This document shows, piece after piece, positions 18,649 to 44,207 of a DNA stretch of 64,000 nt. Made by a program: the position numbers and the translations under genes. The notes under the pieces were generated by a model. That model worked only from the letters and a program-made list of their open reading frames with translations. It did no database searches and was not told where the DNA came from. The stretch comes from an uncultured Candidatus Saccharibacteria bacterium (lineage in GTDB: Bacteria > Patescibacteriota > WWE3 > UBA101185 > UBA10185): assembly GCA_964385105.1 (NCBI GenBank), contig CAYLMU010000002.1, positions 122,583-186,582 of the forward strand, written 5' to 3'. The stretch's first letter is position 1. Each line of letters begins with the position of its first letter.

Positions 18649-18733
18649 TGGTGGGCGAGGTGGGAGTCGAACCCACACCCCTTGCGGGACACGGTCCTAA
18701 GCCGTGCGCGTATGCCAGTTCCGCCACTCGCCC
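18649..18733 (-). tRNA. tRNA-Leu (anticodon TAG), long variable arm
   Basis: reverse complement GGGCGAGTGGCGGAACTGGCA...CTTAGGA anticodon loop...GGTTCGACTCCCACCTCGCCCACCA; 85 nt. Confidence 0.8.
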
Positions 18734-18756: not shown

Positions 18757-19389
18757 CTATTTTACCACTAATTTAGGGGAATTTTCTTTGTTATTTATAT
18801 TTTCTATTTCGTTCATAAACTTTGTTACGCCTTTAAGCCAGTTATGAGGATTTGGCGGTGTATAAACTCTTGCCATTTTTTCAGGTGTATCTAGGCCTTT
18901 TGCAGTATAACCATCATGAATACCTTTACCTACTTTTTCAATTCCTTCTTCAAATGAATTAAAATATATGGCATTGTTACCATGTATCCCCCATCCCCAG
19001 CAATTATATGATTTAGGCAGAATTCTTTTACAAAACGTTGATTCCATTCCCGCAATTGCTGGAAGCAGTCGATAATCGAGGTTGTATTTATCGGCTACTT
19101 CAATAAAAACTTTACTTTTTCCTTTTAGTGGGGAATCATACTTTTCAAATAGTGCTTCGAGTGATTCTTCCCTGTTTATTTCTTTGTATTCAATGTAGTG
19201 GTCGGCAATTACTGCCTTTGTCGCCGGAGGGTCTGCTTCTTCGTCGGCGTTTGATTCATCATCTTCGCTTTGAACAAGTTGTAATGGCAGTATTTTAGCT
19301 TCTGCCATATTGTTATGCACAATACCCGATACAAAAGCAAATGTTGCCATACTAATAACAAATATATTATGTTTATTTACGTAATTCAT
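18757..19389 (-). CDS. secreted peptidoglycan hydrolase-like protein (glucosaminidase/GH73-like), paralog 1
   Basis: signal peptide; AGMESTFC resembles GH73 catalytic ESGWG block; conserved NCWGWG and YTPP; paralogous to 19516-20160. Confidence 0.4.
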   Translation of the reverse strand: MNYVNKHNIFVISMATFAFVSGIVHNNMAEAKILPLQLVQSEDDESNADEEADPPATKAVIADHYIEYKEINREESLEALFEKYDSPLKGKSKVFIEVADKYNLDYRLLPAIAGMESTFCKRILPKSYNCWGWGIHGNNAIYFNSFEEGIEKVGKGIHDGYTAKGLDTPEKMARVYTPPNPHNWLKGVTKFMNEIENINNKENSPKLVVK

Positions 19390-19515
19390 AGACTTTTAGC
19401 TTAAAAACAGGCACATAAACCCCACAGCTAAAAGGTTTTGGGGATTTAGAGCTATAATTTAAGCCGAATAATGGTATCACAGTGGTTGGTATATTTCAAA
19501 CCGCTATGTATTTAT

Positions 19516-20160
19516 TTAAAATGGAAGTTTAATAAATAAGGCTGGTGAACTGCTAACAGATTCATAACCCGTGATTTCGTCTCCAAAGTGTTGAACTCCC
19601 CTGCACCATGAACCGTTTGACGGAGGTGTGTATGTTTTCATAATTTCGCACAAATCAGTGACGCCTTTAGAATAAAATGTTTCGCTCATATATTTGGAAA
19701 CAACTGCAATTCCTTCTTCTACAGTTTCAAAAGTTCTAACATTGTTGCCCCAAACTCCCCATCCGTAAAAATTATTTGAAGTTTGGCCATTTAAAGTAGG
19801 TACATTTTTGCCACAGCTTGATTCCTGAAATGCAATTGAAGCAACAAGCCAGTACGGAATATTATTTTTTTCTGCTTCTCTTACAAATGCTTCTCCGTAG
19901 CCTGTTATTGGGCAATTGTACTTTTCAAATACTTCGTTTAGTCTTGCTGCTTTAGAGTCTGCTCCCTCAATATTATTTGTTGATAAACCTAAAATATGCG
20001 GTCTGGCAGAAAATATTGAATATTTTAAATTGCCTGTTAGTTGAGGTTGTAATGTACCTAAAAGTAGAAAAATAAGAGTAAATGCCGATCCCATGGCAGA
20101 AAAAAGCCAGGCAGCCGGTAAGAAAGGTTTAATTTTTTCTAGAGCAGAATGCTTGGGCAT
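19516..20160 (-). CDS. secreted peptidoglycan hydrolase-like protein (glucosaminidase/GH73-like), paralog 2
   Basis: same architecture (AFQESSCGK, FYGWGVWG, YTPPSNGSW). Confidence 0.4.
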   Translation of the reverse strand: MPKHSALEKIKPFLPAAWLFSAMGSAFTLIFLLLGTLQPQLTGNLKYSIFSARPHILGLSTNNIEGADSKAARLNEVFEKYNCPITGYGEAFVREAEKNNIPYWLVASIAFQESSCGKNVPTLNGQTSNNFYGWGVWGNNVRTFETVEEGIAVVSKYMSETFYSKGVTDLCEIMKTYTPPSNGSWCRGVQHFGDEITGYESVSSSPALFIKLPF

Positions 20161-23166: not shown

Positions 23167-23359
23167 GGCAGTTTTTTTATTTTACTTTATATTAACATTT
23201 TGAATTACAGTGACATATACATGTTTTTATTTAATTTACGGCATTTTCTTCGATTCATAAATTTGTTAATTGATTTTGCTTGGTATATAATTCGCCCAAA
23301 CTAAATAAATGCACATTAAAAAAGAATAATAAAAAACAAAAGGTATTTGGAGGATTAAG

Positions 23360-24151
23360 ATGTTTTGGATTAGAGTCATTTTCAGGTTACTAAAGTTAGG
23401 TCTCATTTTGTTTGTATTCGTATACATTATGGGACTATTGGCAGAACCTATTATTTCAATTCCGCTGCCGGGTTTTTTGTCGTTTCTTGAGCCCATCAAG
23501 TTTCTTGCTATATGGGGAAACAGAGAACTCGTTAATTCGGGTTTCTTACCAAGGCTTCTTGGAACAACAACGTCTCAAATTGTGGCTGTTCAAGGCCCTT
23601 TGCAGACATTGGGTCAGTTTGTAGTAAATTTATTCACTACCCCCGGAGGCTGGGCCATTTTATTACTTATAGTGATTTTATGGCTACTTACGGGAGGACA
23701 TCGAAACTTAGGCGGTCGGGTTCGGGGTGCTTTGGATGAACGAAATATTCCGGTTGGAATTTTGGTACTGGCGCTAATTGTGCTTTTGTTCCTCTATTCC
23801 CAAGGTGGAATGCCGTTATTAATTAGTAACCTTATTCCGGCAGGAATTCTGGTAATAGTTTTTGTGGTACTGGCGAAATTTCTGCCCGATATTGCCGGTT
23901 GGATCGGAGAAGTAGCAGGTGCAATTGTTACGTTTTTGCTGGTTGGGTTTGCAGGACTGATATTAGTTCTATCCGCTCTATCAGGAGCAGGCATGTCGAT
24001 TGGTTTTTTTAGTGCCTTACCTATTCCTGGTATGAACTGGGTGGTGGCACTAAGCCGCGAGATTGGATCAATGTTCAGTGCAACATTCATCCTTTTAGTA
24101 ACAATTGTAATTGGTGGCATATTAACAATACGGAGAAGATTAAATGGCTAA
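23360..24151 (+). CDS. hypothetical polytopic membrane protein (GC-rich island)
   Basis: 263 aa, about 7 predicted TM segments; higher-GC codon usage than flanks. Confidence 0.55.
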   Translation: MFWIRVIFRLLKLGLILFVFVYIMGLLAEPIISIPLPGFLSFLEPIKFLAIWGNRELVNSGFLPRLLGTTTSQIVAVQGPLQTLGQFVVNLFTTPGGWAILLLIVILWLLTGGHRNLGGRVRGALDERNIPVGILVLALIVLLFLYSQGGMPLLISNLIPAGILVIVFVVLAKFLPDIAGWIGEVAGAIVTFLLVGFAGLILVLSALSGAGMSIGFFSALPIPGMNWVVALSREIGSMFSATFILLVTIVIGGILTIRRRLNG

Positions 24152-25421
24152 GAAAAAGGCAGTTTTGTTTATAGGTGTGTTGGTTGCCTTACTTATAACT
24201 TTGGCAGGATGTTCAACCAAACTTGAAAAAGGCACTTTGCTATATAAATCTGAACAAGAGGCACTTAACAGACAAAATCCTGTTACAACGGCACAAGAAT
24301 CAGATTTAATGGCTGTTGAGCAAGTTAGCCCGTATGTTGCAAAAGTTACCGTATACAGCGGGATTAATGCTCCAGAGGGTGAGGTTGTTTATTATGCTTA
24401 TCTTCCTGAAGACAGCGTTGTAACACAACCACAAGAGAATGTTGCAGAGCAAGTACCACAGCCACAAGTTGAACAGCAAAATCAAGAAAACCAAAGTGTT
24501 GAAGAATCACCACCGCCGCAAGAAGGTACACCACTTTATGGCAACGTCGAAGATGCCATAAACGGAACAAACCCTCTAAGTACGTTGAGTGATACCGATG
24601 TTGTGATTGTAAGCAATTGGGCTAACCAAGAAAACAACATTGGCTACACCCACATAACCGGACCTGGTCGAGGTGCAACCGGTTTGTATTTTTACTACCG
24701 GATCCCGAATGGTGGGAATTCTAATATTTTCACTGAGACTTTTTCGGGGTTTAGATTAAGCGGTTTTCGTTTAGATGAAATTTCTTGGGGGCTGATTGTA
24801 GCATTTGTATTAGAGGCTCTTGTTATCTATGTTCCAATTCGTCATTATGTTTTGAGGAAAAACGTTCCCGATAATATTCTTATCAAAGTTGAAAATCCTC
24901 AAACTCAAGATGGCTTTGAGTTAGATTGGGTCACTGCGGAACTGCGGTATAGATTATCAACGAACCCTGACGAAGCGGAAGCGTATGAACGTATGGGAAA
25001 GGATGAGGTAATTGATCAAATTCGCATAGCCGTAAACAGGTTTATATACCAAATAACCAGCCAAGTCCCGCTAAAATTTGTAAATGCTTATCTTATCCGG
25101 GAAATCTCTTTGGATAATCCCGGGTTAGTACTCCCGGACGTTGGGATTGTTCCTCTTTCGTTTACGTTTAAGGAATCAAATATTCCACCGGAGTACGAGC
25201 AGTACTTACACGCAGAGACAGCGGCTAGAGAAAGGGGCAGACTGATAAATGATTTATCAGACACGGCAGGTATTCCGCGAAACCTCGCTGCTTTAGTTCA
25301 GATTGCTCAGAGTAGTGAAGGCACAATTCAAGCCTATCTTGCCAACGTATTATCTGGGGGTCAATTTACTGATAATATGTCCGAAGATTCCTCGGATGAT
25401 GAAGTTGAATCGGAGATATAA
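24144..25421 (+). CDS. hypothetical lipoprotein (GC-rich island)
   Basis: signal peptide with lipobox LAGCS; Q/P-rich linker. Confidence 0.55.
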   Translation: MAKKKAVLFIGVLVALLITLAGCSTKLEKGTLLYKSEQEALNRQNPVTTAQESDLMAVEQVSPYVAKVTVYSGINAPEGEVVYYAYLPEDSVVTQPQENVAEQVPQPQVEQQNQENQSVEESPPPQEGTPLYGNVEDAINGTNPLSTLSDTDVVIVSNWANQENNIGYTHITGPGRGATGLYFYYRIPNGGNSNIFTETFSGFRLSGFRLDEISWGLIVAFVLEALVIYVPIRHYVLRKNVPDNILIKVENPQTQDGFELDWVTAELRYRLSTNPDEAEAYERMGKDEVIDQIRIAVNRFIYQITSQVPLKFVNAYLIREISLDNPGLVLPDVGIVPLSFTFKESNIPPEYEQYLHAETAARERGRLINDLSDTAGIPRNLAALVQIAQSSEGTIQAYLANVLSGGQFTDNMSEDSSDDEVESEI

Positions 25422-25424
25422 CAA

Positions 25425-25883
25425 ATGTGGATTTTAATGGATATAGTATTCGCGTTTACCATTATAGGGACTACTCTGTTTATGGCAATTGGTGAACGCT
25501 TGAAAATGCAAGACAATGTAATTTACAGGTTCATATCTATGATGTGGAATAGGCTAAATCTCGTAATTTGGTGGCCATCGATTCAAAAGTATCTCTATAT
25601 TGTCATAACCTACATGACAATAAAAAGACTTTTGTTTTACACACTTACATCAATTGCGAGTACGCCATACTGGTTTGTATTAGCTGAGGTAACATTACCT
25701 CCATTACCCGGAGCACCTCTATCATTTGCATCCTGGTTGGTGCTTACTGTTATAGTGTTATTAATGGAAGCAATTGCGTGGACGAGGCAGACAAAGAATA
25801 AGATGCTAAATCCGGTATGGGTACCACTTCTGTATCTTGCAATTGCGTGGAGAACAACACTTTTGATTTTTCAAAGGTTCTAA
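25425..25883 (+). CDS. hypothetical membrane protein (GC-rich island)
   Basis: 152 aa, about 4 TM. Confidence 0.5.
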   Translation: MWILMDIVFAFTIIGTTLFMAIGERLKMQDNVIYRFISMMWNRLNLVIWWPSIQKYLYIVITYMTIKRLLFYTLTSIASTPYWFVLAEVTLPPLPGAPLSFASWLVLTVIVLLMEAIAWTRQTKNKMLNPVWVPLLYLAIAWRTTLLIFQRF

Positions 25884-26072
25884 TTACACCTCATTAAAAG
25901 GAGAAGATAAACCCGAACCTCAGCTCACATATGAAATATTCAATCGAAAAATTCATGCGTGATCTCAGGTTCGGATCTTTTTCAAGCTTATGATAATTCG
26001 TAAGTTTGAAACGAGATAATACAAATCATAAAAATAAATCAATTCACAAGAATTTGTTAAAAGGAGTGAAAA

Positions 26073-28325
26073 GTGAATAGGTACATTGAAAATCTAATCA
26101 GAAAAGTTGAAGTAAACTCAAGAAAGCTCACACGAAGGGGTTTTTTTGGATTATTGGTTATTAGTTTATTGGTTTCTGCGGGTTACTGGTATTTACCTAA
26201 AGCTGTAACTATTTCTGATGAAATGGATAGTTACTTGTTTTATGGAGTTGTGAGTCTATGGATTGTGTGTGGCTTATATGTTTTTGTTGGTGTTTTAAAC
26301 TTAAGGCGTATAAATCAGTCAGAAAATGTATTTTTTCATTTTTTGAACGCCCTGGATTTTTCGCCACTTGATAACACACCGCAGGATAAAGAGAAGAGTC
26401 GAAACAAATCGCCACTTCTCCTAGACGATACACAACACCGTATCGCTGAACAAAGAAGTTTTATAGCCATGAACAAAAGATTTCTGGTTATAGCATCTTT
26501 GCTAATTGTGAGTATGCTTGTTGTCGTGCTGCCAAGCTTGCTGGGATTTCTCGTTAAATTGAGCATATTCACTGTTATAGCGATTGTTTTTGGCATGTTG
26601 CTTTTAGTACTTTGGATAAATGGCCGCCTTAATATTGCTTTTATAGATAATATTAAGAATAAACTGGTTGCATTAAAATCCATTGTTCAGAGCAAATATC
26701 GTGGCATTAAAAAGCATGCACGCTTTGTGACCTGTGTTGTTCTTGTATTGGCTGTGGGTTTCTATTTTTTGGCAAGAGAAAAAAATTGGAATTTTACATT
26801 GCTAAACAATTCAACGGGTCTAAAAAATGCTTCAGTTGAGGTACGGACTACACCAACACCTTTTCCGCAGTTCACCCCGCAAGTTATAGTTGAACCAACA
26901 GCTGAGCCAGAGCCTTTTGGTGAAGTGCTTCAGCCAAGTGTGATATATGACGTAGACGAGGTAAATGAATTACGCGGAAACATTGCAGCAGAAACTCATT
27001 CTTTGCGCAATATCATTGTAGAAGTATTCAATACTTTTACAGGTATTACCACGGATGCATACAATAATCCAGATGTGAAATATGTTGATTGGAACCTTAT
27101 TGTTGAAAACAATGAGGAATCGCAAGATCACTCACATAATGATCTGGCAGGGTTAAATGCGTTTGTTGCAGAATGGGCAGATGATTTTCGGCGACGCCTT
27201 GATGATGTATTTTCACAAGACTCGCAAGGTGTTGTGTTGAATGAAGAGAGTCATAACCTCTACACCCAACAAACCCGTTTATTGCATCAGGCAATGAATG
27301 ATTTGTTTGAGTTGGCAGTTGCTCTTCAAAGTCTAAACGATCAGCATCCAAACTGGCATTTAGCATCTCAGAGGTTGCACATTTACAACAATACTGCTTT
27401 TCAATACAACAAAGTGGTAAATGATAATGCAAACCTTGGAGGTGCACTTCTTCCGATTTTCGATACAAGTGAAACTTCATTTGTAAAAGTATTGGAAGAA
27501 ATTTACAAGCGGGAGAATAGGGTTGTAATTACGGAGCCTGCACCGGTTCAACCGGCGGTTCCCGTTATAGCAAATCCGATTTTTGAGCTTGAACAAGCAG
27601 CCGGTCTGGGTACACCATCAGCCACATCACAAGACTCAGAAACTCCTATGCCAACTCCGACTCCTGTTCAATACGGAGTTGCAGGTCCTGCAGCATGTGA
27701 ATTTCCGATAGGAGGAAACGCTCGTTACCTAGACGTGGACTTAGTTGATACCAATGGTGATGGTGACGTAGAAGCAATTCCACTTCCTGCAAGTGGGGGT
27801 ATTGAAAAAGCTGTCACTTTAATGATGAAGGAACCCGCAATGTATATAGGGAACATCCAAGGATGCGGTCACGTTGTAGCTTTTTATTTAAATGACGCTC
27901 AACCGACATGGTTTTTGCTTGAAAGACCACCGGGAGTAAATCCTGGTGAGTGCATGATTGCAAATTACTTTGAAGCGGGTGACCCGTTTGATAATAGAAT
28001 TTACAGGGCAGACTGCAATACCGGAGAAAAAGGTGTTCAGATATTTCCGGCAAACGAAACGGTTACAACGTTTGATCCTGTTTGTGATACAAGTAGTACT
28101 AGTTTTCTTTCAGGGATTGGTACGGGATGGTCATTAAACGGGATTTACGATTCAGGACGTGGTGTGAGAGCTAGGTGGTTTGTGTGTTCTAGTGGACAGT
28201 ATCGTATAGATCTGGAAGGGTATGGATGGTATCTTTCAGATACTGTGCCATCAAATATTCCACAGAATACATGGTATCGCACGGTTCAAGCTAATGGCCA
28301 ATGGGTTGCAATTGTAGCCCAGTAA
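26073..28325 (+). CDS. large hypothetical membrane protein, 750 aa (GC-rich island)
   Basis: several N-terminal TM helices then a large Cys-containing extracellular domain. Confidence 0.55.
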   Translation: MNRYIENLIRKVEVNSRKLTRRGFFGLLVISLLVSAGYWYLPKAVTISDEMDSYLFYGVVSLWIVCGLYVFVGVLNLRRINQSENVFFHFLNALDFSPLDNTPQDKEKSRNKSPLLLDDTQHRIAEQRSFIAMNKRFLVIASLLIVSMLVVVLPSLLGFLVKLSIFTVIAIVFGMLLLVLWINGRLNIAFIDNIKNKLVALKSIVQSKYRGIKKHARFVTCVVLVLAVGFYFLAREKNWNFTLLNNSTGLKNASVEVRTTPTPFPQFTPQVIVEPTAEPEPFGEVLQPSVIYDVDEVNELRGNIAAETHSLRNIIVEVFNTFTGITTDAYNNPDVKYVDWNLIVENNEESQDHSHNDLAGLNAFVAEWADDFRRRLDDVFSQDSQGVVLNEESHNLYTQQTRLLHQAMNDLFELAVALQSLNDQHPNWHLASQRLHIYNNTAFQYNKVVNDNANLGGALLPIFDTSETSFVKVLEEIYKRENRVVITEPAPVQPAVPVIANPIFELEQAAGLGTPSATSQDSETPMPTPTPVQYGVAGPAACEFPIGGNARYLDVDLVDTNGDGDVEAIPLPASGGIEKAVTLMMKEPAMYIGNIQGCGHVVAFYLNDAQPTWFLLERPPGVNPGECMIANYFEAGDPFDNRIYRADCNTGEKGVQIFPANETVTTFDPVCDTSSTSFLSGIGTGWSLNGIYDSGRGVRARWFVCSSGQYRIDLEGYGWYLSDTVPSNIPQNTWYRTVQANGQWVAIVAQ

Positions 28326-28329
28326 CTAA

Positions 28330-29625
28330 ATGAGGAAACTTATGTACACACGTGAAAGAACCGAAGAAAAAAATCTTTCCCAGATTTTTTTCACAACTGT
28401 GATTCTAATGACCCTGATAGTAGCTTTGTATCTGCTATATCAGCGAGTCACCACTGAACACAACCAAGGTTCTATGGTAGTAATTGAGACGAGTGAAGCA
28501 GGCAACAACGAGTTCACACAAGAATCAAAGCCTGTTACAATTCCGACTCAAGCAGCATCATTTGAACCTACTATTCAACAGCTTGATGTCTTGTCTATGG
28601 GTCAGTTTGGTGGTTTGAACTTAACCTTTGAGCCAAGCATTAACATGCTTAAAGCAGAAACTGTCACAGTTTTACTACCTTACAGTCCCCCTCTAGTTCA
28701 GAGCGATGAGATCTCTCTAAAGTGGGGATCGTTTATCGCAGCTTTCATTGCAGGCAATCAGCCTGGGATGACAGATCTTGGTACTTGGTTTCTTCGAAAC
28801 TTGCAAAATGTTGATGTAGAAGCCGCAAGAATTGAATTAGTTCTTGCTATTGAAGGAACATCGCGATTTCCGGATAATCCATACTTGATTCACACAAGTG
28901 AAAGATCGAGTCAGAATCCTGGAATAAAAATCAAGTATATTCCTCAATTAGCAAATGCAATTGTGGCGTTGAGAGCTCTTGGTGCTGACGATATAGCAGA
29001 CACGCTGAAATCCGACGCATTAGCAGCTCTTGAACTTGAAGCTCAAATCATAGAGCAAGAACGCCAGGTACAATTGGCGCTACAAGCTCAAGCCTCAGCA
29101 GATGCCGAGCAAGAGCAAAATCAGGCGTTTGAAGCTCCTGAATCGGTTGAATCTCTCCAAGCCGCTCAAGTAACCGAACCGGTTGATGTACCTGTAGAAA
29201 GCACTGCTTCTCAAACCGAAAGCGGAATCGTTGACGGTAGCACATCAGACACCCAAGAGGTAATAGAATTACCTAGAAACCTCAACATTCCTCCTGGCGA
29301 TGTAGACAGTAGTTCGCTTGGTTTTTCGCCATACGGAATTTTAATGGGAGTTTGGGCATTGAGAGATTTCTTTGAGGGTAATCCGGGTATAACATATTGG
29401 GAAGTAACCAACATGGAATATCTGAGCCCTCGCGGCGCTTCTACCGGAGTTGCCGACTTCTTAGGCCTAAGTGAAGTTAAACTGTGGTATGTAACCATGG
29501 TCGGTCACAGGCCTGATGGTTCGGTAACAATTCCTGTGAAAGCAGGACTTTTCTGGTTAGGAGGGTTATCTCCATTTGAGATTGGCGATCAGCTTGAAGT
29601 CAAATCTATTTTGGGATGGCCTTAG
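28330..29625 (+). CDS. hypothetical membrane-anchored protein with low-complexity A/Q/E linker (GC-rich island)
   Basis: N-terminal TM; 5 nt after preceding gene. Confidence 0.5.
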   Translation: MRKLMYTRERTEEKNLSQIFFTTVILMTLIVALYLLYQRVTTEHNQGSMVVIETSEAGNNEFTQESKPVTIPTQAASFEPTIQQLDVLSMGQFGGLNLTFEPSINMLKAETVTVLLPYSPPLVQSDEISLKWGSFIAAFIAGNQPGMTDLGTWFLRNLQNVDVEAARIELVLAIEGTSRFPDNPYLIHTSERSSQNPGIKIKYIPQLANAIVALRALGADDIADTLKSDALAALELEAQIIEQERQVQLALQAQASADAEQEQNQAFEAPESVESLQAAQVTEPVDVPVESTASQTESGIVDGSTSDTQEVIELPRNLNIPPGDVDSSSLGFSPYGILMGVWALRDFFEGNPGITYWEVTNMEYLSPRGASTGVADFLGLSEVKLWYVTMVGHRPDGSVTIPVKAGLFWLGGLSPFEIGDQLEVKSILGWP

Positions 29626-29793
29626 TTAGTAAATCGTAAAAGATTTGTTGTTGAACCGGTAAATCATGCAAGTAAGCATATACCGGTTCAACTTTCCATT
29701 TTGGGCGTGTTGGTTTAAACATACTCAAAAGGGAGAGAAGTTTAAGAAGTACATTAAAAACTCAAAAGCAATAGCCGAAAAAAGGTAAAAAAA

Positions 29794-30678
29794 ATGAAGC
29801 TTAATTTTTTAAGGAAGTTTAAAGCAAAAGGTCACAAACTCATCAGGTTTGTAGTTGTTGGTGTAGTGCTTTGCATGGTTTACTTTGTTGTTTCTAATAC
29901 AGATCAACAAATGAGGGCTAATACATTAAAATCAGCACAAGTTGGAAGGTTAGAAAAATTTACAGCTGTAGCAATATTGCCAACTCCAACCATGGTGCCG
30001 CTATTAGCCCCTACCCCGCTTACATTACCGCAGGTTGAGTTTAATAGTGTAGAAGCCTTGTTGGAATTTGATATCCAAACGATTGAAATTGCAGAGCTTT
30101 ACTTGGGGCAAGTGTATGACCAATATGGCCAAGTGCATTCCGCCGCAGCAAATATAAGTGAGCTTGAGATTCCGGTTAGTGAAATTGCATCACCTTGTGG
30201 CGCAGGAAGGAATCTTGTTCGCACCGGGTACGGTTTTAACTGGTATCCGGGCATGAACTGGAGAACTACCGGGGCTAACTACCACCCGGCTCTTGATGGC
30301 AAGTGTGATGATCAACTTGAGATTTATTCGGCGTCAAAGGCGGTTATATGGCGTGTTTTTGAAGATTTACAACTAAGCGACTATAACAGTGTAGCTTTTT
30401 GGTCTTCAGGACGCACCTATGTCGCGTTATCCTACGCACACGTATGGTTTGACGGCAAATTACAGCAAGTATTGTTGGTTTTTGTTTATGGCCATTTACA
30501 ATACCCCCAACCGGGAGAGGTATTTCCCCAAGTCGGTGATATTGTTGAACAAGGTCAGTTATTGGGGTACATGGGTAAAACCGGAAGAGCTACTGGGCCG
30601 CACTTGCACTATGGTATAGGTATTTTGCAAGATGCTCATACGATTTACTGGTTAGACCCTTTAGACTTAGGAGCATAA
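29794..30678 (+). CDS. M23-family metallopeptidase (LytM-like)
   Basis: C-terminal LLGYMGKTGRATGPHLHYGI; N-terminal TM. Confidence 0.7.
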   Translation: MKLNFLRKFKAKGHKLIRFVVVGVVLCMVYFVVSNTDQQMRANTLKSAQVGRLEKFTAVAILPTPTMVPLLAPTPLTLPQVEFNSVEALLEFDIQTIEIAELYLGQVYDQYGQVHSAAANISELEIPVSEIASPCGAGRNLVRTGYGFNWYPGMNWRTTGANYHPALDGKCDDQLEIYSASKAVIWRVFEDLQLSDYNSVAFWSSGRTYVALSYAHVWFDGKLQQVLLVFVYGHLQYPQPGEVFPQVGDIVEQGQLLGYMGKTGRATGPHLHYGIGILQDAHTIYWLDPLDLGA

Positions 30679-30684
30679 AATCTA

Positions 30685-31464
30685 ATGAGACCAAGTTATA
30701 CGGTGGTCGCCTTCTTAGTATTGATACTGATATTTATTGGCATTTTGGCACAAATCTTTAGTGTTGGGAAAATGGGGTTTGGGTATAAAAATAGCAACGA
30801 ATCAAAACCCAACCGTGTAATTATACCAACTATAGAAACACCATCAATTGAGCCAACAACAACAAGCCCTATATTCGAATGGCGAGCCAGAATGTTTGAT
30901 GAGCAGTTTGGTGAACAAATTGTTGGGTTGCACTTAAGCGTTGAGTTAATTAGCGTTTCAGTAGAAACTCTAACAATTGTGAACCGCCAAGAAGCTCCCG
31001 AAACAGGTGAAGTATTTGTTGTTGACAGCGAAAGTTGTGGTTTGTCAGTTTTAAGCGCTGTTGAACTTGCTCGAACTATTGCCCTTGAACGTGGTATCCC
31101 GTGGAACATCTGGGGGCCATTGATTTTGTCTGAAAGTTCATACAGACAGTTTGTTTCAGATGCATACGGAAATTGTACCGTTATTGAGAATTCTATTGGA
31201 GCTTATTGTCTTGCTCAAGTGTATATGGCGGTTCATCCCCAGTACACCAAACAAGCTCTTGCAGACCCCCGTGCATGTTTAAATGCCGGAGCAGACATTT
31301 TGCTTCAAAAGTATTCCCGAACTCAAGATTGGCATGAAGCAGTTGCCCGGTACAAAGGCATAACTCGTGCTGACTTTACCCAACATCGGGATTACAAAAT
31401 TTTTAACAATTACCATGCTGCCGGAGGATTCATTGAACCTTCGGGTTATTGGATTTCATGGTAG
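30685..31464 (+). CDS. secreted hypothetical protein, possible SLT-like lytic transglycosylase
   Basis: TM/signal; ILSESSYRQF (catalytic Glu-Ser) and IGAYCLAQVYM resemble SLT ES...G.MQ blocks. Confidence 0.35.
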   Translation: MRPSYTVVAFLVLILIFIGILAQIFSVGKMGFGYKNSNESKPNRVIIPTIETPSIEPTTTSPIFEWRARMFDEQFGEQIVGLHLSVELISVSVETLTIVNRQEAPETGEVFVVDSESCGLSVLSAVELARTIALERGIPWNIWGPLILSESSYRQFVSDAYGNCTVIENSIGAYCLAQVYMAVHPQYTKQALADPRACLNAGADILLQKYSRTQDWHEAVARYKGITRADFTQHRDYKIFNNYHAAGGFIEPSGYWISW

Positions 31465-31518
31465 CAATTACCCCTCGCTTGTGTGCTTATGTTTTGGCAT
31501 ACAAAAAGAGGGGTTTTT

Positions 31519-32105
31519 TTATATTTCTAAACTGTGCCAAAGTGCTATTGTGCCATAGGTTTTATACGGTTCCCATTTTGCCACAACTTCAGCTATAGCC
31601 AAATCCGACGGATCTTTTATATCATAAACTTTTTCAAATCCTTTTTTTAAGCCTAGATCACCATATGAAAAAACATTTCGGCAGTCCACTTCCCTATTCC
31701 TTTTACTTTTGTAAGTTCAGCAATTACTTCATCATCACTTAATTTCGCAAGATTATTTAGTTTCACTTCTCTGTTGGCCACCTTTTCGGCCAAATCTTTT
31801 ACATATTTTACTTTAGCCCAAGACAAGCCTAAATCTCTTAGTTCCTGATCTGAAATTTTTAGAATTTGCTGTGGCGTTGCTATGTTGTTTGAAAATAAGT
31901 TACTAAATCTTTCTTTAATTGCACGGGCGGCTTTTCCTGATAATTGTTGACCGATTATATTGCTGCACAGATGCGTAAAATAATATTTTTCATCAATTTT
32001 ATCGCCAAACCATTCGTTATAGTTAACATGCTTTGCAACCACATAAATTTTAGGATCATTTTGTTTAAAGTGGTTTATAATTTTAGTAAGCTGTGCATTT
32101 TTCAT
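31519..32105 (-). pseudogene. HhH-GPD DNA glycosylase (AlkA/3-methyladenine glycosylase II-like), disrupted by a frameshift near 31652
   Basis: ORF 31653-32105 ends right after the HhH motif LTKVKGIGKWTAEMF; a different frame 31519-31651 continues GDLGLKKGFEKVYD...AIAEVVAKWEPYKTYGTIALWHSLEI, the expected C-terminus. Confidence 0.6.
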
Positions 32106-35901: not shown

Positions 35902-38900
35902 TTAATAAATTAAAGAAACTGTTGGAAACTCAAATTCTTTTGCAATCTCAACAAAAAAATCCGATTTAACTTTTAATTTTTTTGTTTTATCTAAATCACT
36001 TAAATATCCCTTATATGCAATGTTAAGAGCAGCCTGAACATCGGCATCACTAATGTTTTGACAGTCTATGAAGGGGCATATAAATAAGGCACTATTACCA
36101 CGATTTTCGTAAAATGTTTCAAAATTCAAATTATTAATTTTTAGATATTCCGCATCTTTGGGTGGACGCATAAATTCATATACGCATGTCTTCAATTTTG
36201 ATCCCGGTATATTTGGACCTATAATATCTTTGGAAAAAAACAGTAATTTCTGACCGTTTATATCTGCCTTATAAATATTAGAAGAATCAACATATTTAGA
36301 TGTTTTATATTCTCTTGATGTATCAATATACTTTAAGGGTGAACGTCTGCATTTAGAGCATGTTTGACTTGTTCCATATGCACTTATGTGATTTCCAACT
36401 AATTGGTTTTTGCCCCAGACTTTTTCGCGCTCAGATTTATCAGCATCATTTCTGCCAATGACATCAGTTTTTTTGATTGAGTGATAAATTTTTGCTACTC
36501 TATTACCTGCAGTCTCAAAGGCCGATATCTCATGCTCGTATATTGGTTTTGCATCATATTTCAAAACTAAATCATGAATACGATTTCTTATACCATTTTG
36601 TGCAGATTTTCTTATTCTGCTTAATGCTGAATTAGGAACTGTGAATGTTCCGGTTATTTGCTGATTTTTTATGATATCAATATGATCTCTTATTTTTCTA
36701 ATTTCAGCACTGTAAATAAAACCAGTGTCTACTGTAGTTAAAGCACCTTCAGCAGATAATACATAATATGCCACACCATATTCACCTATATCAAGTCCTA
36801 AATATTTTTTTGCTATTTCAATATTTTTATTAATTTGCGGTTTCTCATTTGGGTTAATATTAAATGGTTGATTAAAATATATCGATTGACTTATCTCAAT
36901 TAGCTCAATTTTACCAGTAAGAAAGTTACAATCAGCATTGTATGTTATTTCTTTAACAATTTGAGGTTCGTCTCTTGTTATATGAACCTTACCCTTTCTT
37001 TTTTGGTCACTCATGAACCATTCAAGGAATTGTCGCTGGTACCTTGAAGTTTTTATTTGGAAAAGATTTATTAACTGTGAATTCTCATCTATTTTGAATT
37101 TATTTGGACTCTTATCAACAGTCTTTTTTACGTTGTATATTTCAAGTTCTGTGAATTGGTTTTTCGTGTTTAGATTGGGAAAACCAACAAAGAAAGCATA
37201 TTTGGTCTCATCTTTGTTTGAAGAGTAATATATGGGGAATTTCTTTTCAGAATTCATTACCTGTGCAACTTCTCGAATATTAAATGTTTTCCTACTAGTC
37301 TGGTTAAAAATACCTCTAACTTCAGAAAATAGAATTGAATTTAATATATAAAAGACTGCATTCTTATCTAATTTGCCGTTTGTTAGAAAAAGAATATTTT
37401 TTAAATGATCAAAATATTTATGAGTAATATTCAATTCAATAAAGTCAAAATTATGTAAGTGCACAAACCATGATGTGGTAAGTTTTTTCATTTCGATATA
37501 ATCAATTCGCTGCGCTGAGTTTAAGTTTTTCCAATCTTTAGTATCATCTAACTCATTGTATAGTTTTTCTAGTTCTGTGTTGAAGTCGCTAATAACCATT
37601 AATATATTTAATATTTTTCTATTTTCTCTTTTTGAATATTTTGATTTATATATTATTTCATATTTTTTGTTCGGAATTTTACCGCAGTATCTTACAAGAA
37701 TTTTCTCCACTTTGTTTTTATACATATTTGTATTAAGTTTATTGTGTAACCTTGAAAGTTTTTCTAATTGGTATATGAAGTAATCACTTTCAACTAATTC
37801 CATTTTTTGTGATGTGTTCATGATTTCGTTTTTTATTATCTCTACAATCTTAAAAGCTTCATCACATCTAATTGCAAAGTTGATATACTTTGAGTTTAAT
37901 TCTTTTTTTGATTCACCATAAAACTTTGGCAAGTATTGGACTTTTTTAAATAGGTTTGGCAAGATCTTATCAATGGTTATCTCTGTTAACACTATTTGTA
38001 AGTGCTCATCTTGATTAATTTTTTCTGTATTATCTTTTTTGTTACCTTTATTCTTTTTTCCTATTTCTTTAGCAAGATTATACTTTTTATTATAGAAAAG
38101 TTTGCCCGACTGGAAATGTCTATTAGTTAATGATTTGATGTTTCCCAGTAATTCAACATAGGTGTTAAATACATCTATGTTAGTTGTATTTTCCGCGGCT
38201 TCTAGTGCAATTAATATTAAAGACTCTAAATCCTTTAAATCACTTTTTTGTACTTCCTCTAGTAGCTCCTGCAATTCGCTTTTTTGTTTAATTATTTGTT
38301 CATGAGATTTAGCTAAGTAATTATTGTAGTTTGAATACCAAGATTTCAGTTTACCCGAGAAAACACTTCTATATTCAGCCCATGTAGTTGCTAACATTGG
38401 TTGTGGCAGTAATTTGGCTCTATTAGATAGAAAGTCCAATCTCTTTTGTAATTCAGCTTCATTACCGACCCATAAGTTTCCAGTAGATAACATTTCATCA
38501 AAGTACTTTTGAGTGTTGCTATTTCTTAAATCATTAATTACTGCGTTAAAGTAGTTTGATAATGCATTTCCATTACTACCGATTCCCAGAAGGTTTTCTG
38601 TATCGTTATTTAAAGCAGTTATCCTACTAATGGCATCAAGTGGCGTCAGCCCTTCAACTAAATTCAAAGAAGGATATATATAAAAAGTAGTACTATATGA
38701 TATATTTTCCGAGTTTATTTCTGTATAGCCAAATGCTTTAGCCAAAATTTCATTCTGTTCTATTTTAGATTTACCAATTATTGAATGTGCTGTATTTTCA
38801 ATTATATTAGTAATCTCTTTGTCATTTTTAAAATCGTCTTTAACAAATTCAAGTAATTGTTTTTTTATTGATTTAGGTGTGCTTGTAGTTTTAAATACAC

Positions 38901-39303
38901 TCTTTAGAAACACTTTTTTAATAAAGCTTACTTCTATTAACTTATTGCGCAAGTCTTCCGGAATTGTGTTAAATGACAGAACATAGGGGTTTGGAATGTT
39001 AGATAAGTCATGTATTAGAGCAAACATTTCCGCAGTGCTCTGCTGAAAAATTACACCAGCACGTAAACTGTCAAGCCAAAAATCTAATAATGAGTAAACT
39101 TTTTGATGTGATAAGTATTGATCTATATTACCTATGCCATCTAAATAAATTGAATCGTGATGAATAGCACCTGATAATGAATTGAAAAGTTCTTGATCTT
39201 GTGTTCTAAGTGGGTATTTTATAGTTCTCTTTATCTTACCACCGACATATTCTGCTCTTTTTGCATGTAGTGTGTATCCTGTTTTACCTAAATATTTTTT
39301 CAT
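35902..39303 (-). CDS. type V CRISPR effector, Cas12 family (Cas12d/CasY-like), 1133 aa
   Basis: RuvC-I KYLGLDIGEYGVAYYVL, RuvC-II PIYEHEISAFETAGNR, zinc ribbon TCSKC...CPFIDC, RuvC-III NISDADVQAALNIAYKGY; N-terminal 800 aa without recognisable domains; abuts the CRISPR array; cas1 lies on the array's other side. Confidence 0.8.
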   Translation of the reverse strand: MKKYLGKTGYTLHAKRAEYVGGKIKRTIKYPLRTQDQELFNSLSGAIHHDSIYLDGIGNIDQYLSHQKVYSLLDFWLDSLRAGVIFQQSTAEMFALIHDLSNIPNPYVLSFNTIPEDLRNKLIEVSFIKKVFLKSVFKTTSTPKSIKKQLLEFVKDDFKNDKEITNIIENTAHSIIGKSKIEQNEILAKAFGYTEINSENISYSTTFYIYPSLNLVEGLTPLDAISRITALNNDTENLLGIGSNGNALSNYFNAVINDLRNSNTQKYFDEMLSTGNLWVGNEAELQKRLDFLSNRAKLLPQPMLATTWAEYRSVFSGKLKSWYSNYNNYLAKSHEQIIKQKSELQELLEEVQKSDLKDLESLILIALEAAENTTNIDVFNTYVELLGNIKSLTNRHFQSGKLFYNKKYNLAKEIGKKNKGNKKDNTEKINQDEHLQIVLTEITIDKILPNLFKKVQYLPKFYGESKKELNSKYINFAIRCDEAFKIVEIIKNEIMNTSQKMELVESDYFIYQLEKLSRLHNKLNTNMYKNKVEKILVRYCGKIPNKKYEIIYKSKYSKRENRKILNILMVISDFNTELEKLYNELDDTKDWKNLNSAQRIDYIEMKKLTTSWFVHLHNFDFIELNITHKYFDHLKNILFLTNGKLDKNAVFYILNSILFSEVRGIFNQTSRKTFNIREVAQVMNSEKKFPIYYSSNKDETKYAFFVGFPNLNTKNQFTELEIYNVKKTVDKSPNKFKIDENSQLINLFQIKTSRYQRQFLEWFMSDQKRKGKVHITRDEPQIVKEITYNADCNFLTGKIELIEISQSIYFNQPFNINPNEKPQINKNIEIAKKYLGLDIGEYGVAYYVLSAEGALTTVDTGFIYSAEIRKIRDHIDIIKNQQITGTFTVPNSALSRIRKSAQNGIRNRIHDLVLKYDAKPIYEHEISAFETAGNRVAKIYHSIKKTDVIGRNDADKSEREKVWGKNQLVGNHISAYGTSQTCSKCRRSPLKYIDTSREYKTSKYVDSSNIYKADINGQKLLFFSKDIIGPNIPGSKLKTCVYEFMRPPKDAEYLKINNLNFETFYENRGNSALFICPFIDCQNISDADVQAALNIAYKGYLSDLDKTKKLKVKSDFFVEIAKEFEFPTVSLIY

Positions 39304-39399
39304 TTATTTTAAAAAGCATATTCGAGAAGGAAGAAGGCATTCTAATAGCACAGGCTATTAGGGACTCCCTTTAATAATCGGTATTTGAAGGGTTTACTC

Positions 39400-40040
39400 T
39401 GTTTAATTTCACTTTTCCCCTACAATTCGGGGCTTGATAAATGCCTCTTTGCCTTTAATCCCCTACAATTCGGGGACTTACATGTTCATCATATGCCTTT
39501 AATCCCCTACAATTCGGGGTGAGACTTGTATCATACTGCCTTTAATCCCCTACAATTCGGGGTACCTCTTTTTGACCCATGCCTTTAATCCCCTACAATT
39601 CGGGGTTGCCCTTGTCAGACGGTAGCCTTTAATCCCCTACAATTCGGGGTATCAGGGTTTGGCTTGTAGCCTTTAATCCCCTACAATTCGGGGAAAATGG
39701 ATAAGGATATAGCCTTTAATCCCCTACAATTCGGGGAGACTTTAGACAGTGCTGAGCCTTTAATCCCCTACAATTCGGGGTGTAGCTCCACAGGGTATTG
39801 CCTTTAATCCCCTACAATTCGGGGTATGGAAAACATGGTCATGCCTTTAATCCCCTACAATTCGGGGAAATCCTACGTTGTTTGACGCCTTTAATCCCCT
39901 ACAATTCGGGGCTAGGGTTAGTTCAGTTTGCCTTTAATCCCCTACAATTCGGGGCACAGTTACCGAGAGTAAGCCTTTAATCCCCTACAATTCGGGGTAA
40001 TGGGTGTTCGTTTTGGCCTTTAATCCCCTACAATTCGGGG
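39400..40040. CRISPR. CRISPR array: 14 identical 25-nt repeats (GCCTTTAATCCCCTACAATTCGGGG) plus a degenerate repeat, 18-19-nt spacers
   Basis: repeats start at 39451, 39495, 39538, 39581, 39625, 39669, 39712, 39756, 39800, 39843, 39887, 39930, 39973 and 40016; degenerate copy with a 9-nt insertion at about 39400-39432; all spacers unique; repeat has CCCC/GGGG hairpin at its 3' end; AT-rich flank 40041-40143. Confidence 0.95.
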
Positions 40041-40143
40041 AGTTTACCCGATATATGCTTTATTTAAAGTACAAATTAATATAATATATATATAAATTAA
40101 CCTCATTAATTGGTTAATTACGCGTGATTATAGCATATTTCTT

Positions 40144-42674: not shown

Positions 42675-43448
42675 TTATAGTTCTGGAATCGTTTCTGACA
42701 GTATTATATCAAATGGTTTTGATTCATAAACCATACGTGAGTTGTTTATTAAATCTATTAAATGTACTTTGATCGTATAGGTACAGGTTTCTGTTGGTAA
42801 ACAAATAGGTGTTGTTTCATCTTTTTTGTCTATATTTCGCGAAAATTCCGACACAACAAAAACATCATTGCTGTTGTTTAAAAAGTATGCCCGGTCAAAA
42901 TGGCAATTCGCCCTAACAGAACAGTCTACAACACGCGCATCAATAATTTTGTCATCTTTTAAACCATAAATATGTACTTCATTTGGCTCGTACCCGTCAC
43001 GTTGAATACTTCTGTAATCTATAAAAAGTCTATTACTTGGTGCAAAAACCACATGTTCATTTTGCTCTTCAAGCAGCTTCTTTTGTTGAATATTTGTATC
43101 AAATTCTTCTCTTTTACCTTCTTCATCAATTGAGCTTATTGTCAGCCATTTTGTGTTATATATTTCATTTTCTTCAACAAGTGTAAAATCCTCAGCCTCT
43201 ATTTCAAAGCCTTTATTTTTTAAATTGGTCATCCATTTTTGAAATCCTTTGCTTTCTTCTACTTTTTCGGGGAGTCTTGAATTATCAACTGCCCTTTGTT
43301 CTGCATAATTTAACCCAGCACCGGCAAACACGAGTGTAAAAACTGCTACTGTAAGCGCGGATGAAATTAACTTTTTGTTCATGTTTTGATTATACCTTAA
43401 TATAAAAACGCCATGGCTTTTTTGCCCAATTGCCGGCGTAATCAACAT
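42675..43448 (-). CDS. hypothetical secreted protein
   Basis: N-terminal hydrophobic segment. Confidence 0.45.
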   Translation of the reverse strand: MLITPAIGQKSHGVFILRYNQNMNKKLISSALTVAVFTLVFAGAGLNYAEQRAVDNSRLPEKVEESKGFQKWMTNLKNKGFEIEAEDFTLVEENEIYNTKWLTISSIDEEGKREEFDTNIQQKKLLEEQNEHVVFAPSNRLFIDYRSIQRDGYEPNEVHIYGLKDDKIIDARVVDCSVRANCHFDRAYFLNNSNDVFVVSEFSRNIDKKDETTPICLPTETCTYTIKVHLIDLINNSRMVYESKPFDIILSETIPEL

Positions 43449-44190: not shown

Positions 44191-44207
44191 TAAATATTGG
44201 CTACAAG

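Follow-up and report, generated by a model that had tools for sequence, protein, structure and literature searches.

The window analysed here, a stretch of 64,000 nt from a chromosome that is Patescibacteria (CPR)-like, contains an 8-kb block of seven co-oriented genes that departs in composition from everything around it, which raises the questions of where this block came from and what it encodes. A preliminary description had called it a GC-rich, compositionally foreign island. The GC content of the island (23360-31464, + strand) is 0.411, compared with 0.340 in the remaining window. All 160 non-overlapping 8.1-kb segments together gave 0.341±0.008 with a maximum of 0.360, placing the island approximately 8.7 SD higher, and a maximum-likelihood two-boundary fit set its edges at 23460 and 31600 (2ΔlnL=158). 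The GC3 of the island genes ranged from 0.31 to 0.39, compared with 0.26±0.03 in 55 other ORFs (Mann-Whitney p=7.7e-8), and GC1 and GC2 were likewise elevated. Seventeen host ORFs with TM-like segments showed GC3 values of 0.20-0.31; membrane-protein status therefore does not explain the composition of the island. Additionally, Lys made up 2.8% of the island proteins versus 7.9%, and these proteins were also GARP-rich. The island is thus clearly foreign in composition, as first described.

The island lies between a histidine kinase gene and a DNA glycosylase gene. As already noted in the preliminary description, neither an integrase nor a tRNA gene adjoins it (the nearest, tRNA-Leu, is at 18649-18733), and no flanking or att-like repeats were found at its borders. 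The features of the locus are as follows.

23263..23291, + strand: promoter-like site TTGTTA-17-TATAAT (consensus scan, 10/12 matches)
23360..24151, + strand: gene 1, polytopic membrane protein of 263 aa, 6 TM-like segments, no Cys, GC3 0.36
24144..25421, + strand: gene 2, lipoprotein-like protein of 425 aa, lipobox LTLAGC with Cys23, one internal TM
25425..25883, + strand: gene 3, small membrane protein of 152 aa, 3 TM-like segments (hydropathy)
25913..25974, + strand: long stable hairpin, then a U-rich run (MFE -26.6 kcal/mol, z=-5.3)
26073..28325, + strand: gene 4, protein of 750 aa with a GTG start and an N-terminal block of 4-5 TM-like segments
28330..29625, + strand: gene 5, bitopic protein of 431 aa with an N-terminal TM anchor
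29650..29692, + strand: stable hairpin, then a U-rich run (MFE -23.1 kcal/mol, z=-4.0)
29794..30678, + strand: gene 6, membrane-anchored M23 (LytM-type) metallo-endopeptidase of 294 aa (PF01551)
30685..31464, + strand: gene 7, membrane-anchored SLT family-1-like protein of 259 aa, conserved motifs, sub-threshold family match
31470..31521, unstranded: terminator hairpin with a U-tract that ends the operon (MFE -25.0 kcal/mol, z=-5.8)

The operon is composed of three translationally coupled sub-operons set apart by long hairpins. The promoter-like site, a consensus match of a kind no more numerous in this region than shuffling predicts, lies within the AT-rich 193-nt gap 5' of gene 1, whose ATG is preceded by a GGAGG ribosome-binding site. 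The reading frames of genes 1 and 2 overlap by 8 nt. The hairpin at 25913..25974 occupies the 189-nt gap from sub-operon 1 (genes 1-3) to sub-operon 2 (genes 4-5), that at 29650..29692 the 168-nt gap from sub-operon 2 to sub-operon 3 (genes 6-7), and the terminator lies between the operon and a convergent glycosylase pseudogene.

The distribution check suggested earlier identified one syntenic copy, an 8-gene cluster in Patescibacteria MAG188 (JBMORU010000001.1) encoding proteins of 263, 346, 153, 747, 783, 439, 305 and 308 aa. Homology between the two clusters was detected at 5 of the 7 positions (SW z 6 to 26), with about 25% protein identity. The two internal breaks between sub-operons, with their hairpins, coincide in position between the genomes (in MAG188, a 187-nt gap with z=-6.9 and a 189-nt gap with z=-6.4), and the last MAG188 gene is also trailed by an equivalent hairpin and U-tract (z=-7.8). 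The flanking genes are wholly different: the MAG188 cluster sits between the genes for ribosomal protein L25 and LeuRS. Its GC content is again high (0.45-0.49 versus 0.33-0.35), as is its GC3 (0.35-0.48 versus 0.15-0.25 in the flanks). The operon was not found in the other species representatives scanned with narrow DNA patterns (185,579 in all). It is extremely rare, the same gene order being present, at another site, in only one further known genome. The preliminary description had proposed that a conserved, vertically inherited envelope operon would speak against foreign origin. The operon turned out to be conserved, but its recurrence at an unrelated site, again as a GC-rich block, tells against simple vertical inheritance on grounds of both context and composition.

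Genes 1-5 encode orphan proteins, with no fold or family evidence from Pfam, NCBIfam, PHROG, PADLOC, protein searches or, for gene 4, structure prediction. Hydropathy gave 6, 3 and 4-5 TM-like segments for the 263-, 152- and 750-aa products and a single N-terminal anchor for each of the products of genes 5-7. Gene 1 had no match in any of the four family collections. The MAG188 gene at the same position (L003 5035-5826) also encodes 263 aa with approximately 6 TM segments and has no detectable sequence similarity to it (Smith-Waterman z=-0.2). Besides a Q/E/P-rich outer region, a TM segment (about aa 210-234) and an acidic tail, the gene 2 product has a conserved C-terminal domain with the motif LSTNPD..YE..G.D. 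It is homologous to MAG188 L003 5890-6930 (BLASTP E 8e-13, SW z=20.8), and among 5.8 billion proteins a word-indexed profile search recovered it from these two lineages only. Gene 3 aligned with the 153-aa protein at the same position in MAG188 (L003 6920-7381) with SW z=6.1.

The TM block of gene 4 carries a KNxNF motif. Two Pro/Thr linkers come after it, the first leading into a helical domain (about aa 294-481) and the second into a C-terminal domain (about aa 540-750) that is beta-rich and has repeated GW[YF]L..xP.NI motifs, the secondary structure being taken from a low-confidence AF2 model. Six Cys fall within aa 542-705, in keeping with the Cys-containing ectodomain described before. 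An exhaustive HMMER phmmer search of 1.84 billion representatives returned only two remote matches (E 9e-9 and E 2e-5); both align to the C-terminal domain, and one sits in the MAG188 cluster. MAG188 carries two tandem paralogues of this protein (SW z=26 and z=10 against gene 4), in which the TM block of about 150 residues is identical as protein, at about 87% nucleotide identity over 597 nt, and the C-terminal domains differ. A lone homologue of this tip domain on a third contig has a GC3 of 0.41, compared with 0.20-0.28 for its neighbours, except for one 81-aa ORF at 0.40.

Beyond its TM anchor, the gene 5 protein has an outer domain that an acidic/Q-rich linker connects to a C-terminal domain. 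It had no relative in a word-indexed protein search and is an orphan, and it showed no measurable similarity (SW z=-0.1) to its 439-aa positional counterpart in MAG188 (L003 12367-13686). A short N-proximal module, weakly supported at E 0.055, is common to gene 5 (aa 63-115) and gene 7 (aa 37-99). In MAG188, about 60 aa are common to the 439-aa counterpart and the SLT-like protein (E 6e-8), and three bitopic proteins share this N-proximal module (E 6e-8 and 1e-8).

Gene 6 is the sole island protein above a curated family threshold, and its M23 assignment in the preliminary description was confirmed (PF01551, 38.1 bits, gathering score 28.7, E 1.8e-9). Its zinc/catalytic motifs are intact (H164-x3-D168 and H270-x-H272), corresponding to the HxxxD and HxH zinc-binding motifs of LytM/lysostaphin-type enzymes. 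NCBIfam and PHROG M23 models were also matched, PDB M23 matches were weak (best E about 0.01) with HxxxD in register, and a full-length homologue in MAG188 (E 2e-16) keeps the motifs. It differs from the family in several respects: alignment to the model is confined to the C-terminal part of the domain; the window protein is membrane-anchored, and that of MAG188 is a lipoprotein; and an N-proximal module is present that the operon's two remaining bitopic proteins also carry.

Gene 7 is probably a lysozyme-like (SLT family-1-like) protein, judging from its motifs. The SLT-like blocks reported earlier are present and are conserved in the alignment with the MAG188 orthologue (E150-S151, GAyCLAQ and RYKG), but the family assignment stayed below threshold (Pfam SLT, E 0.004, 17.0 bits versus 21.3), and the orthologue itself gave no SLT match. 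Comparison by hhalign with an E. coli Slt70/MltC/MltD/EmtA profile (P=0.0097) placed the ES and GLMQ motifs in register. It shares three elements, all in register, with family-1 lytic transglycosylases (PF01464), namely the Glu-Ser catalytic block, GA-x-[GC]-[LM]-x-Q and, further downstream, D-P/N-x-G, and the region is predicted to be all-helical in a low-confidence model; gene 7 differs by a Cys-bracketed insert of about 9 residues that separates the ES and GLMQ-like blocks. It had no sequence match in the PDB, and its AF2 model was unusable (pLDDT 40). Elsewhere in the window, a PBP transpeptidase gene (62598-63947) points to peptidoglycan synthesis by the host.

On balance, we lean towards a rare, self-contained envelope operon that was horizontally transferred from a GC-richer, as yet unsampled gene pool and that builds a membrane platform, a surface protein with a variable tip and two anchored hydrolases of the wall. 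The horizontal acquisition proposed in the preliminary description gains support from the GC-rich MAG188 copy at an unrelated site and from the lone tip homologue, which is GC-rich too; the direction and vehicle of the transfer are inferred. Since GC-rich islands persist at about 25% protein identity, a GC-maintaining force acting on these genes could be an alternative. It is unlikely that the island is a remnant or cargo of a mobile element, either part of a Gram-positive-type conjugative mating pore (with VirB6-like polytopic, VirB3/VirB8-like small and bitopic proteins, VirB1-like hydrolases and a surface adhesin) or a prophage lysis/entry cassette, whose ATPases, integrase or structural genes have since been lost. 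The foreign composition and differing insertion sites would fit such an origin, the M23 and SLT-type pair beside polytopic and bitopic proteins may resemble conjugative mating-pair modules, and the M23 domain of gene 6 matches many phage endolysin and tape-measure PHROGs. However, no VirB4/VirD4-type ATPase, relaxase, integrase or phage structural family was found in the island or its surveyed flanks, there was no DNA match in 50,697 phage or 72,556 plasmid records, no significant tblastn match for gene 7 and no relative in 2.9 million viral contigs (four alignment-based scans), and no CRISPR spacer of the window matches the island. The MAG188 copy has the same gene content and likewise lacks such genes, which makes two independent decay products unlikely.

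Still less probable is vertical inheritance of a lineage-specific operon for the envelope or for cell division, its high GC content being intrinsic, through protein composition or local constraint, and its hydrolases working on the cell's own wall during growth or in the separation of daughter cells. Gene order, sub-operon structure and hairpin positions are kept across two very divergent genomes, mobility genes and insertion scars are absent, the codon usage of the island is already near that of the host (RSCU r=0.85), and the host makes peptidoglycan. Against this stand the different neighbours in the two genomes, a rise that includes GC3 and not GC1/GC2 alone while host membrane proteins are unshifted, the absence of the operon from the other representatives scanned with narrow DNA patterns and from protein searches, and the GC-rich tip-domain homologue in a third context. 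Highly improbable is an assembly or binning artefact, in which a GC-richer fragment of another organism was joined into the contig. Both sources are metagenome-assembled genomes, and the right junction is backed by one assembly, an independent Logan contig stopping within gene 6. Nevertheless, host-like sequence lies on both sides of the island within a 319-kb contig, an independent Logan assembly gives an identical left junction, the parallel case in MAG188 is on a contig of 1.11 Mb and its left junction likewise recurs in another run (Logan), and the borders are natural ones, namely AT-rich intergenic/promoter regions and a bidirectional terminator.

For the transferred operon, no donor lineage was found in the exhaustive search with the 750-aa protein (1.84 billion) or in the word-indexed searches with the 431-aa and gene 2 proteins, which returned nothing but the query itself or its MAG188 counterpart. 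Genomic islands are reported to be common in Patescibacteria (PMC12455944), and the present one resembles them as a deviant multi-gene block with a sporadic distribution in a streamlined CPR genome. It differs in having no integrase, tRNA or repeats, in its cargo, a conserved seven-gene envelope operon with nearly all members outside known families, and in being compositionally foreign in two very divergent hosts.

Membrane-anchored wall-remodelling machines include SpoIID/SpoIIM/SpoIIP of Bacillus engulfment and the Gram-positive conjugation channels with PrgK-type VirB1 analogues. The island may be likened to them in combining a polytopic scaffold with tethered bitopic enzymes that cut peptides and glycans, but no sequence relationship to any of their components was detected, and it lacks an ATPase and has an extra stalk-and-tip surface protein. 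Because the AlphaFold models of genes 4 and 7 both have pLDDT values of 39-40 and most island proteins have no known relatives, we infer the role of the operon from the topology, from two hydrolases (a secure M23 and a probable SLT-like one) and from a variable extracellular tip. Genes 1-3 would form a membrane platform made up of the 6-TM product of gene 1, the lipoprotein/TM product of gene 2, whose inner domain is conserved, and the 3-TM product of gene 3. Gene 4 would provide a surface protein anchored by 5 TM segments, its stalk helical and its beta tip rich in Cys, and gene 5 a bitopic outer protein. The M23 endopeptidase would cut peptide cross-links and the SLT-like enzyme glycan strands, the platform keeping hydrolases and stalk protein within a single membrane patch, and the seven products may act as one complex. 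Peptidoglycan would be opened locally by the hydrolases, either in the cell's own wall or in that of a partner cell at a contact site, and the stalk and tip protein could pass through the opening to a target and bind it. The tip would be the diversifying part of an operon that, as the preliminary description had suggested, may serve at the cell surface in attachment or predation.

The seven co-oriented genes at 23360-31464 of the window (+) had a GC content of 0.411, compared with 0.340 in the remaining window, and 160 other 8.1-kb windows gave 0.341±0.008, none exceeding 0.360. The edges fell at 23460 and 31600 in a two-boundary likelihood fit (2ΔlnL=158). The shift was strongest at third codon positions, where GC (GC3) was 0.31-0.39 in the island genes and 0.26±0.03 in 55 other ORFs (Mann-Whitney p=7.7e-8). 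Because the 17 host ORFs with TM-like segments showed GC3 values of only 0.20-0.31, membrane-protein coding was ruled out as the cause. The island proteins were also poor in lysine (2.8% versus 7.9%) and raised in Gly, Ala, Arg and Pro, as expected of genes that evolved under higher GC pressure. The abrupt change in GC content and codon usage reported in the preliminary description was thus borne out, and the lengths and shared orientation of the seven ORFs agreed with it. The block is organized as follows.

23263-23291, promoter-like site TTGTTA-17-TATAAT, upstream of gene 1
23360-31464, plus strand, genes 1-7, encoding proteins of 263, 425, 152, 750, 431, 294 and 259 aa
31470-31521, strong hairpin and U-tract, closing the block

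The promoter-like site, together with the GGAGG ribosome-binding site that precedes gene 1, lies within a host-like AT-rich spacer. The window itself is chromosomal, carrying genes for both PheRS subunits (alpha and beta), ThrRS, RelA/SpoT, a PBP transpeptidase, SodA and thioredoxin reductase, with six tRNAs scattered across it. The looked-up proteins of the island and its flanks sit on a 319-kb NCBI contig and were all singletons at 90% identity; every island protein formed a singleton cluster in exact look-ups. The island is bordered on the left by a PAS histidine kinase gene and on the right by an HhH-GPD glycosylase gene. Neither an integrase nor a transposase was found at these borders, nor a tRNA beside them or a flanking repeat, consistent with the earlier statement that integrase and tRNA are missing there, and no att-like direct or inverted repeats flanked the island.

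The glycosylase gene (31520-32105, minus strand) has a frameshift at a six-T run around 31660, and one added T would reopen the full-length frame (…GIGKWTAEMFFSYGDLGLKKGFEKVY…WHSLEI*). The break marks a pseudogene or a phase-variable gene, or else stems from a homopolymer sequencing error. Truncation by the island was rejected, as the gene reaches its normal C-terminus and the frameshift is unrelated to the island border. Upstream of the island, a region of host-like composition (18757-20160, minus strand) encodes a 214-aa TM-anchored protein and a 210-aa family-less protein; the former had a sub-threshold glucosaminidase match (PF01832, E 2.7e-4) and may represent a further wall hydrolase, native to the host. 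Further away, a 176-aa ORF without a family match (44420-44950, minus strand) adjoins tRNA-Arg and tRNA-Leu (44115-44294). Because its GC3 is island-like (0.379, with GC 0.395), which holds for no other gene outside the island, it may represent a second small foreign insertion. In addition, a 172-aa methylpurine-DNA glycosylase ORF overlaps a 257-aa family-less ORF by ~60 nt (42675-43908, minus strand). Of the two stretches in which the 172-aa ORF matched the Pfam profile Pur_DNA_glyco, the better spanned no more than profile positions 1-96 of 181; the pair of ORFs may be a further case of a split or fused gene. The trigger factor (13239-14204, minus strand) is only 321 aa long; its N- and C-terminal domains were matched by Pfam, and no PPIase domain was detected.

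The window also contains a complete-looking type V CRISPR-Cas locus.

35902-41121, whole CRISPR-Cas locus
about 39408-40041, CRISPR array, 15 copies of the 25-nt repeat GCCTTTAATCCCCTACAATTCGGGG
40144-41121, Cas1

Its effector, encoded on the minus strand, is a 1133-aa Cas12-like protein that matched the Pfam Cas12f1-like TNB domain (E 2.8e-5) and, across the RuvC region, the Cas12c2 structure 7v93 in the PDB (E 6e-5). The 14 spacers are unusually short (18-19 nt). Cas1 was the sole adaptation gene identified, no Cas2 or Cas4 ORF being seen at the locus. Cas12c and Cas12d (CasY) systems have been described in CPR bacteria, and the locus resembles them in its short spacers, its single identified adaptation gene and its ~1100-aa effector. 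None of the spacers matched the island, with up to 2 mismatches allowed, or the related loci.

According to hydropathy, the island encodes three polytopic proteins (263, 152 and 750 aa), a 425-aa protein with a lipobox and an extra TM segment, and three proteins anchored at the N-terminus (431, 294 and 259 aa), much the membrane and lipoprotein make-up first proposed. Searches of all seven against Pfam, NCBIfam, PHROGs and PADLOC returned only an M23 domain and a sub-threshold SLT match, the PHROG matches being confined to the generic M23 domain; genes 1-5 matched nothing in these collections or in the PDB. PDB sequence and profile searches with genes 2, 4, 5 and 7 likewise found nothing. An SPFH/Band-7 domain suggested by eye in gene 2 had no Pfam support at E<=1. 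Three known systems offered analogies only: membership in a T7SS was rejected for want of an FtsK-type ATPase and of any family match, FtsEX-type control for want of FtsE and a family match, and a SpoIIIA/SpoIIQ-like channel for want of an ATPase and of matches to ring-building motifs. The AlphaFold models of gene 4 (pLDDT 39.1, 3-sequence alignment) and gene 7 (pLDDT 39.7, 2 sequences) were unusable. The gene 4 model gives, at low confidence, a secondary-structure outline only: TM helices lead through a disordered Pro/Thr linker into a helical domain, which a second linker joins to the beta-rich C-terminal domain, the Cys-rich tip.

Gene 6 scored 38.1 bits against PF01551 (gathering threshold 28.7, E 1.8e-9), and its HxxxD motif aligned with the same motif in PDB 6yj1. 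Its full-length homologue in Betzabe_MAG188, the Patescibacteria genome described below, reached only 16.1 bits by itself, yet H164-x3-D168 and H270-x-H272 are invariant in both orthologues. Gene 6 thus encodes a bona fide M23 metallopeptidase, as had been proposed, and the intact motifs show M23 competence. For gene 7, the ES...G..Q blocks that had led to its description as SLT-like are present and conserved, whereas its Pfam SLT score (PF01464) was 17.0 bits, below the gathering threshold of 21.3 (E 0.004), and the MAG188 orthologue had no match at E<=1. E150-S151 and GAYCLAQ (GATCMGQ in MAG188) are conserved between the orthologues, and the ES, GAxC[LM]xQ and RYKG blocks are invariant. When the pair was aligned by hhalign with a small profile made from the SLT domains of E. 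coli Slt70, MltC, MltD and EmtA, the catalytic blocks fell in register (P=0.0097, probability 4%, with very shallow profiles). A single-sequence comparison with Slt70 was negative, and PDB sequence searches gave no match. Because the Pfam score is sub-threshold, the PDB gave nothing and the profile alignment reached only P=0.0097, we describe gene 7 as probably SLT-like, with a probable SLT-type activity, and do not call it a family member.

Relatives of the island proteins are clearly rare, even allowing for the narrowness of the DNA-pattern scans. When 5.8 billion proteins were searched by word index, the 750-aa and 431-aa proteins each recovered nothing but their own entry, and the gene-2 alignment nothing beyond the query's own entry or its MAG188 counterpart. 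With the 750-aa protein as query, phmmer was run exhaustively over 1.84 billion cluster representatives and yielded two remote matches, both to the Cys-containing C-terminal domain. One of them is a 319-aa TM-anchored protein that is essentially the tip domain alone (E 9e-9), encoded as follows.

2476-3435 of L002, a 5.6-kb AT-rich Logan contig (SRR28385526), gene for the 319-aa tip protein

This gene has a GC content of 0.45, compared with 0.30-0.40 in the contig's other five genes, and a GC3 of 0.41, most neighbours having 0.20-0.28 and one 81-aa ORF 0.40; the neighbours are unrelated, family-less genes. The other match lies in MAG188, which was also the sole match when 185,579 species, each represented by one genome, were scanned with the SLT-like alignment using a narrow DNA pattern. 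A metagenome scan with the M23 alignment recovered generic M23 genes only, on contigs of 53-68% GC and with no other island gene nearby. Four scans of viral contigs with narrow DNA patterns revealed no relative, blastn no match in phage and plasmid DNA, and tblastn of gene 7 against phages and plasmids nothing significant (best E 0.3).

The MAG188 match belongs to a syntenic cluster on a 1.11-Mb contig of 'Patescibacteria group bacterium isolate Betzabe_MAG188'. Its proteins (263, 346, 153, 747, 783, 439, 305 and 308 aa), all hypothetical in the NCBI annotation and without further Pfam matches, follow the identical order with nearly equal sizes, the large protein being doubled. Pairwise homology was found at genes 2, 3, 4, 6 and 7 (BLASTP E 8e-13 to 2e-16; Smith-Waterman z 6 to 26). 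Genes 1 and 5 had no measurable similarity to their counterparts (z about 0) and agreed with them in size, position and topology. Common to both genomes are tight gene coupling inside three sub-operons (genes 1-3, 4-5 and 6-7), gaps of 168-189 nt at the same two internal positions, each holding a long stable hairpin (z -4 to -7), and a hairpin with a U-tract after the last gene. Apart from a CAAGCTT heptamer present in both genomes, the aligned intergenic regions held no conserved DNA motif that was convincing. The tandem large membrane proteins of 747 and 783 aa (7569-12352 of L003, the MAG188 locus) have in common a ~150-residue TM block, identical as protein and about 87% identical across 597 nt of DNA; their upstream leaders are similar and their C-terminal domains unlike. 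This pattern suggests a recent duplication or gene conversion with exchange of the tip.

The MAG188 cluster lies between the ribosomal protein L25 and LeuRS genes, with flanks unrelated to those of the window, and it too departs from its host in composition and codon usage (GC 0.45-0.49 and GC3 0.35-0.48; flanks 0.33-0.35 and 0.15-0.25). Operon genes thus have a foreign appearance in each of three AT-rich settings: the window, MAG188 and the contig of the lone tip protein. Tetranucleotide signatures were only mildly informative on origin (r=0.71 between the two islands; 0.57-0.63 between the MAG188 island and its own flanks). Horizontal acquisition, raised in the preliminary description, is supported by the unrelated L25/LeuRS site, the recurrence of a GC-rich block and the restriction of the operon to two genomes with unrelated flanks. 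Judged as a genomic island, the block shows deviant composition and a sporadic distribution with differing contexts, and lacks a mobility gene, tRNA or repeats.

Several rival readings were weighed (ALTERNATIVES). The possibility that the block is a conserved, vertically inherited envelope operon with intrinsic GC, which had been named as an outcome that would speak against transfer, is half borne out: the operon is indeed conserved, but its differing contexts, its GC3 and its rarity count against vertical descent, which is disfavoured, and context and composition favour transfer. A conjugative or phage module in decay would account for mobility. Against it, the two copies agree in gene content and neither has an ATPase, relaxase, integrase or structural gene, and no phage or plasmid relative was found. 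Specifically, of a Gram-positive-type conjugative type IV secretion system, no VirB4-family ATPase, coupling protein or relaxase was present among the 7 island, 8 MAG188 and 30 flanking or distant window ORFs scanned. Phage structural, packaging and holin families were likewise absent, with no phage DNA or protein match and no viral-contig relatives. A diversity-generating retroelement target was excluded within the window, where the 3' region of gene 4 is unrepeated in 64 kb and no RT family occurs among the scanned ORFs. An assembly artefact is unlikely, as the second case lies on a 1.11-Mb contig and the left junctions were reproduced independently; because these junctions recur in independent Logan assemblies for both genomes, chimeras are argued against.

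Horizontal transfer of the island is therefore the supported reading. At about 25% sequence identity, the two copies cannot derive from a recent common acquisition, and neither has ameliorated to its host's composition. Either each copy came in on its own, fairly recently, from GC-richer carriers that have not been sampled, or some influence keeps the genes rich in GC.

With regard to function, the MAG188 439-aa, M23 and SLT-like proteins have in common a ~60-residue module immediately following the Pro/Thr linker of each (E 6e-8 and 1e-8), of which genes 5 and 7 of the window carry a weak echo (E 0.055). A module common to three otherwise different ectoproteins suggests a docking or targeting function. 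The tip is the part that diversifies and can be exchanged, as it is in adhesins and receptor-binding proteins, because the MAG188 pair differs C-terminally with an identical TM block and the tip domain stands alone on a third contig. By hydropathy, each hydrolase carries a membrane or lipid anchor in either genome, so the two would act next to the producer's own membrane. We infer a complex in which genes 1-3 would form a membrane platform holding the stalk-and-tip protein of gene 4, with gene 5 helping, and the two enzymes; the tip would serve in binding, and the enzymes would open peptidoglycan locally, either in the cell's own wall or in that of a partner cell at the contact site. A putative attachment or predation function is plausible. 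A bolder and rather improbable reading is that the cassette encodes an unrecognised trans-envelope contact apparatus of ultra-small episymbionts, with a Cys-stabilised exchangeable tip and wall cutters directed against the partner cell, circulating among distant Patescibacteria on an unsampled GC-richer vehicle. If true, such circulation would explain the foreign look of the cassette wherever it is found.

A large part of bacterial diversity belongs to the Patescibacteria, whose lifestyle is believed to be one of attachment to other cells. To our knowledge, the molecules used for attachment and exchange are mostly unknown. Because this compact seven-gene cassette pairs wall-cutting enzymes with a surface protein bearing a diversifying tip, and appears to have been gained independently by two very different Patescibacteria, it offers a specific candidate for such a role that can be put to the test; a merely lineage-specific wall-maintenance operon would be of modest interest. 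Genomic islands are common in Patescibacteria (PMC12455944), and an island with wall hydrolases and surface proteins is known in outline. The gene families, the conserved seven-gene architecture and the repeated foreign composition without a visible vehicle are new. The cassette also poses a population-genetic puzzle, since both ~25%-identical copies are still GC-rich in AT-rich genomes and billions of sampled proteins include no donor. This suggests either a gene pool or vehicle as yet unsampled or a force holding the GC content of these genes high.
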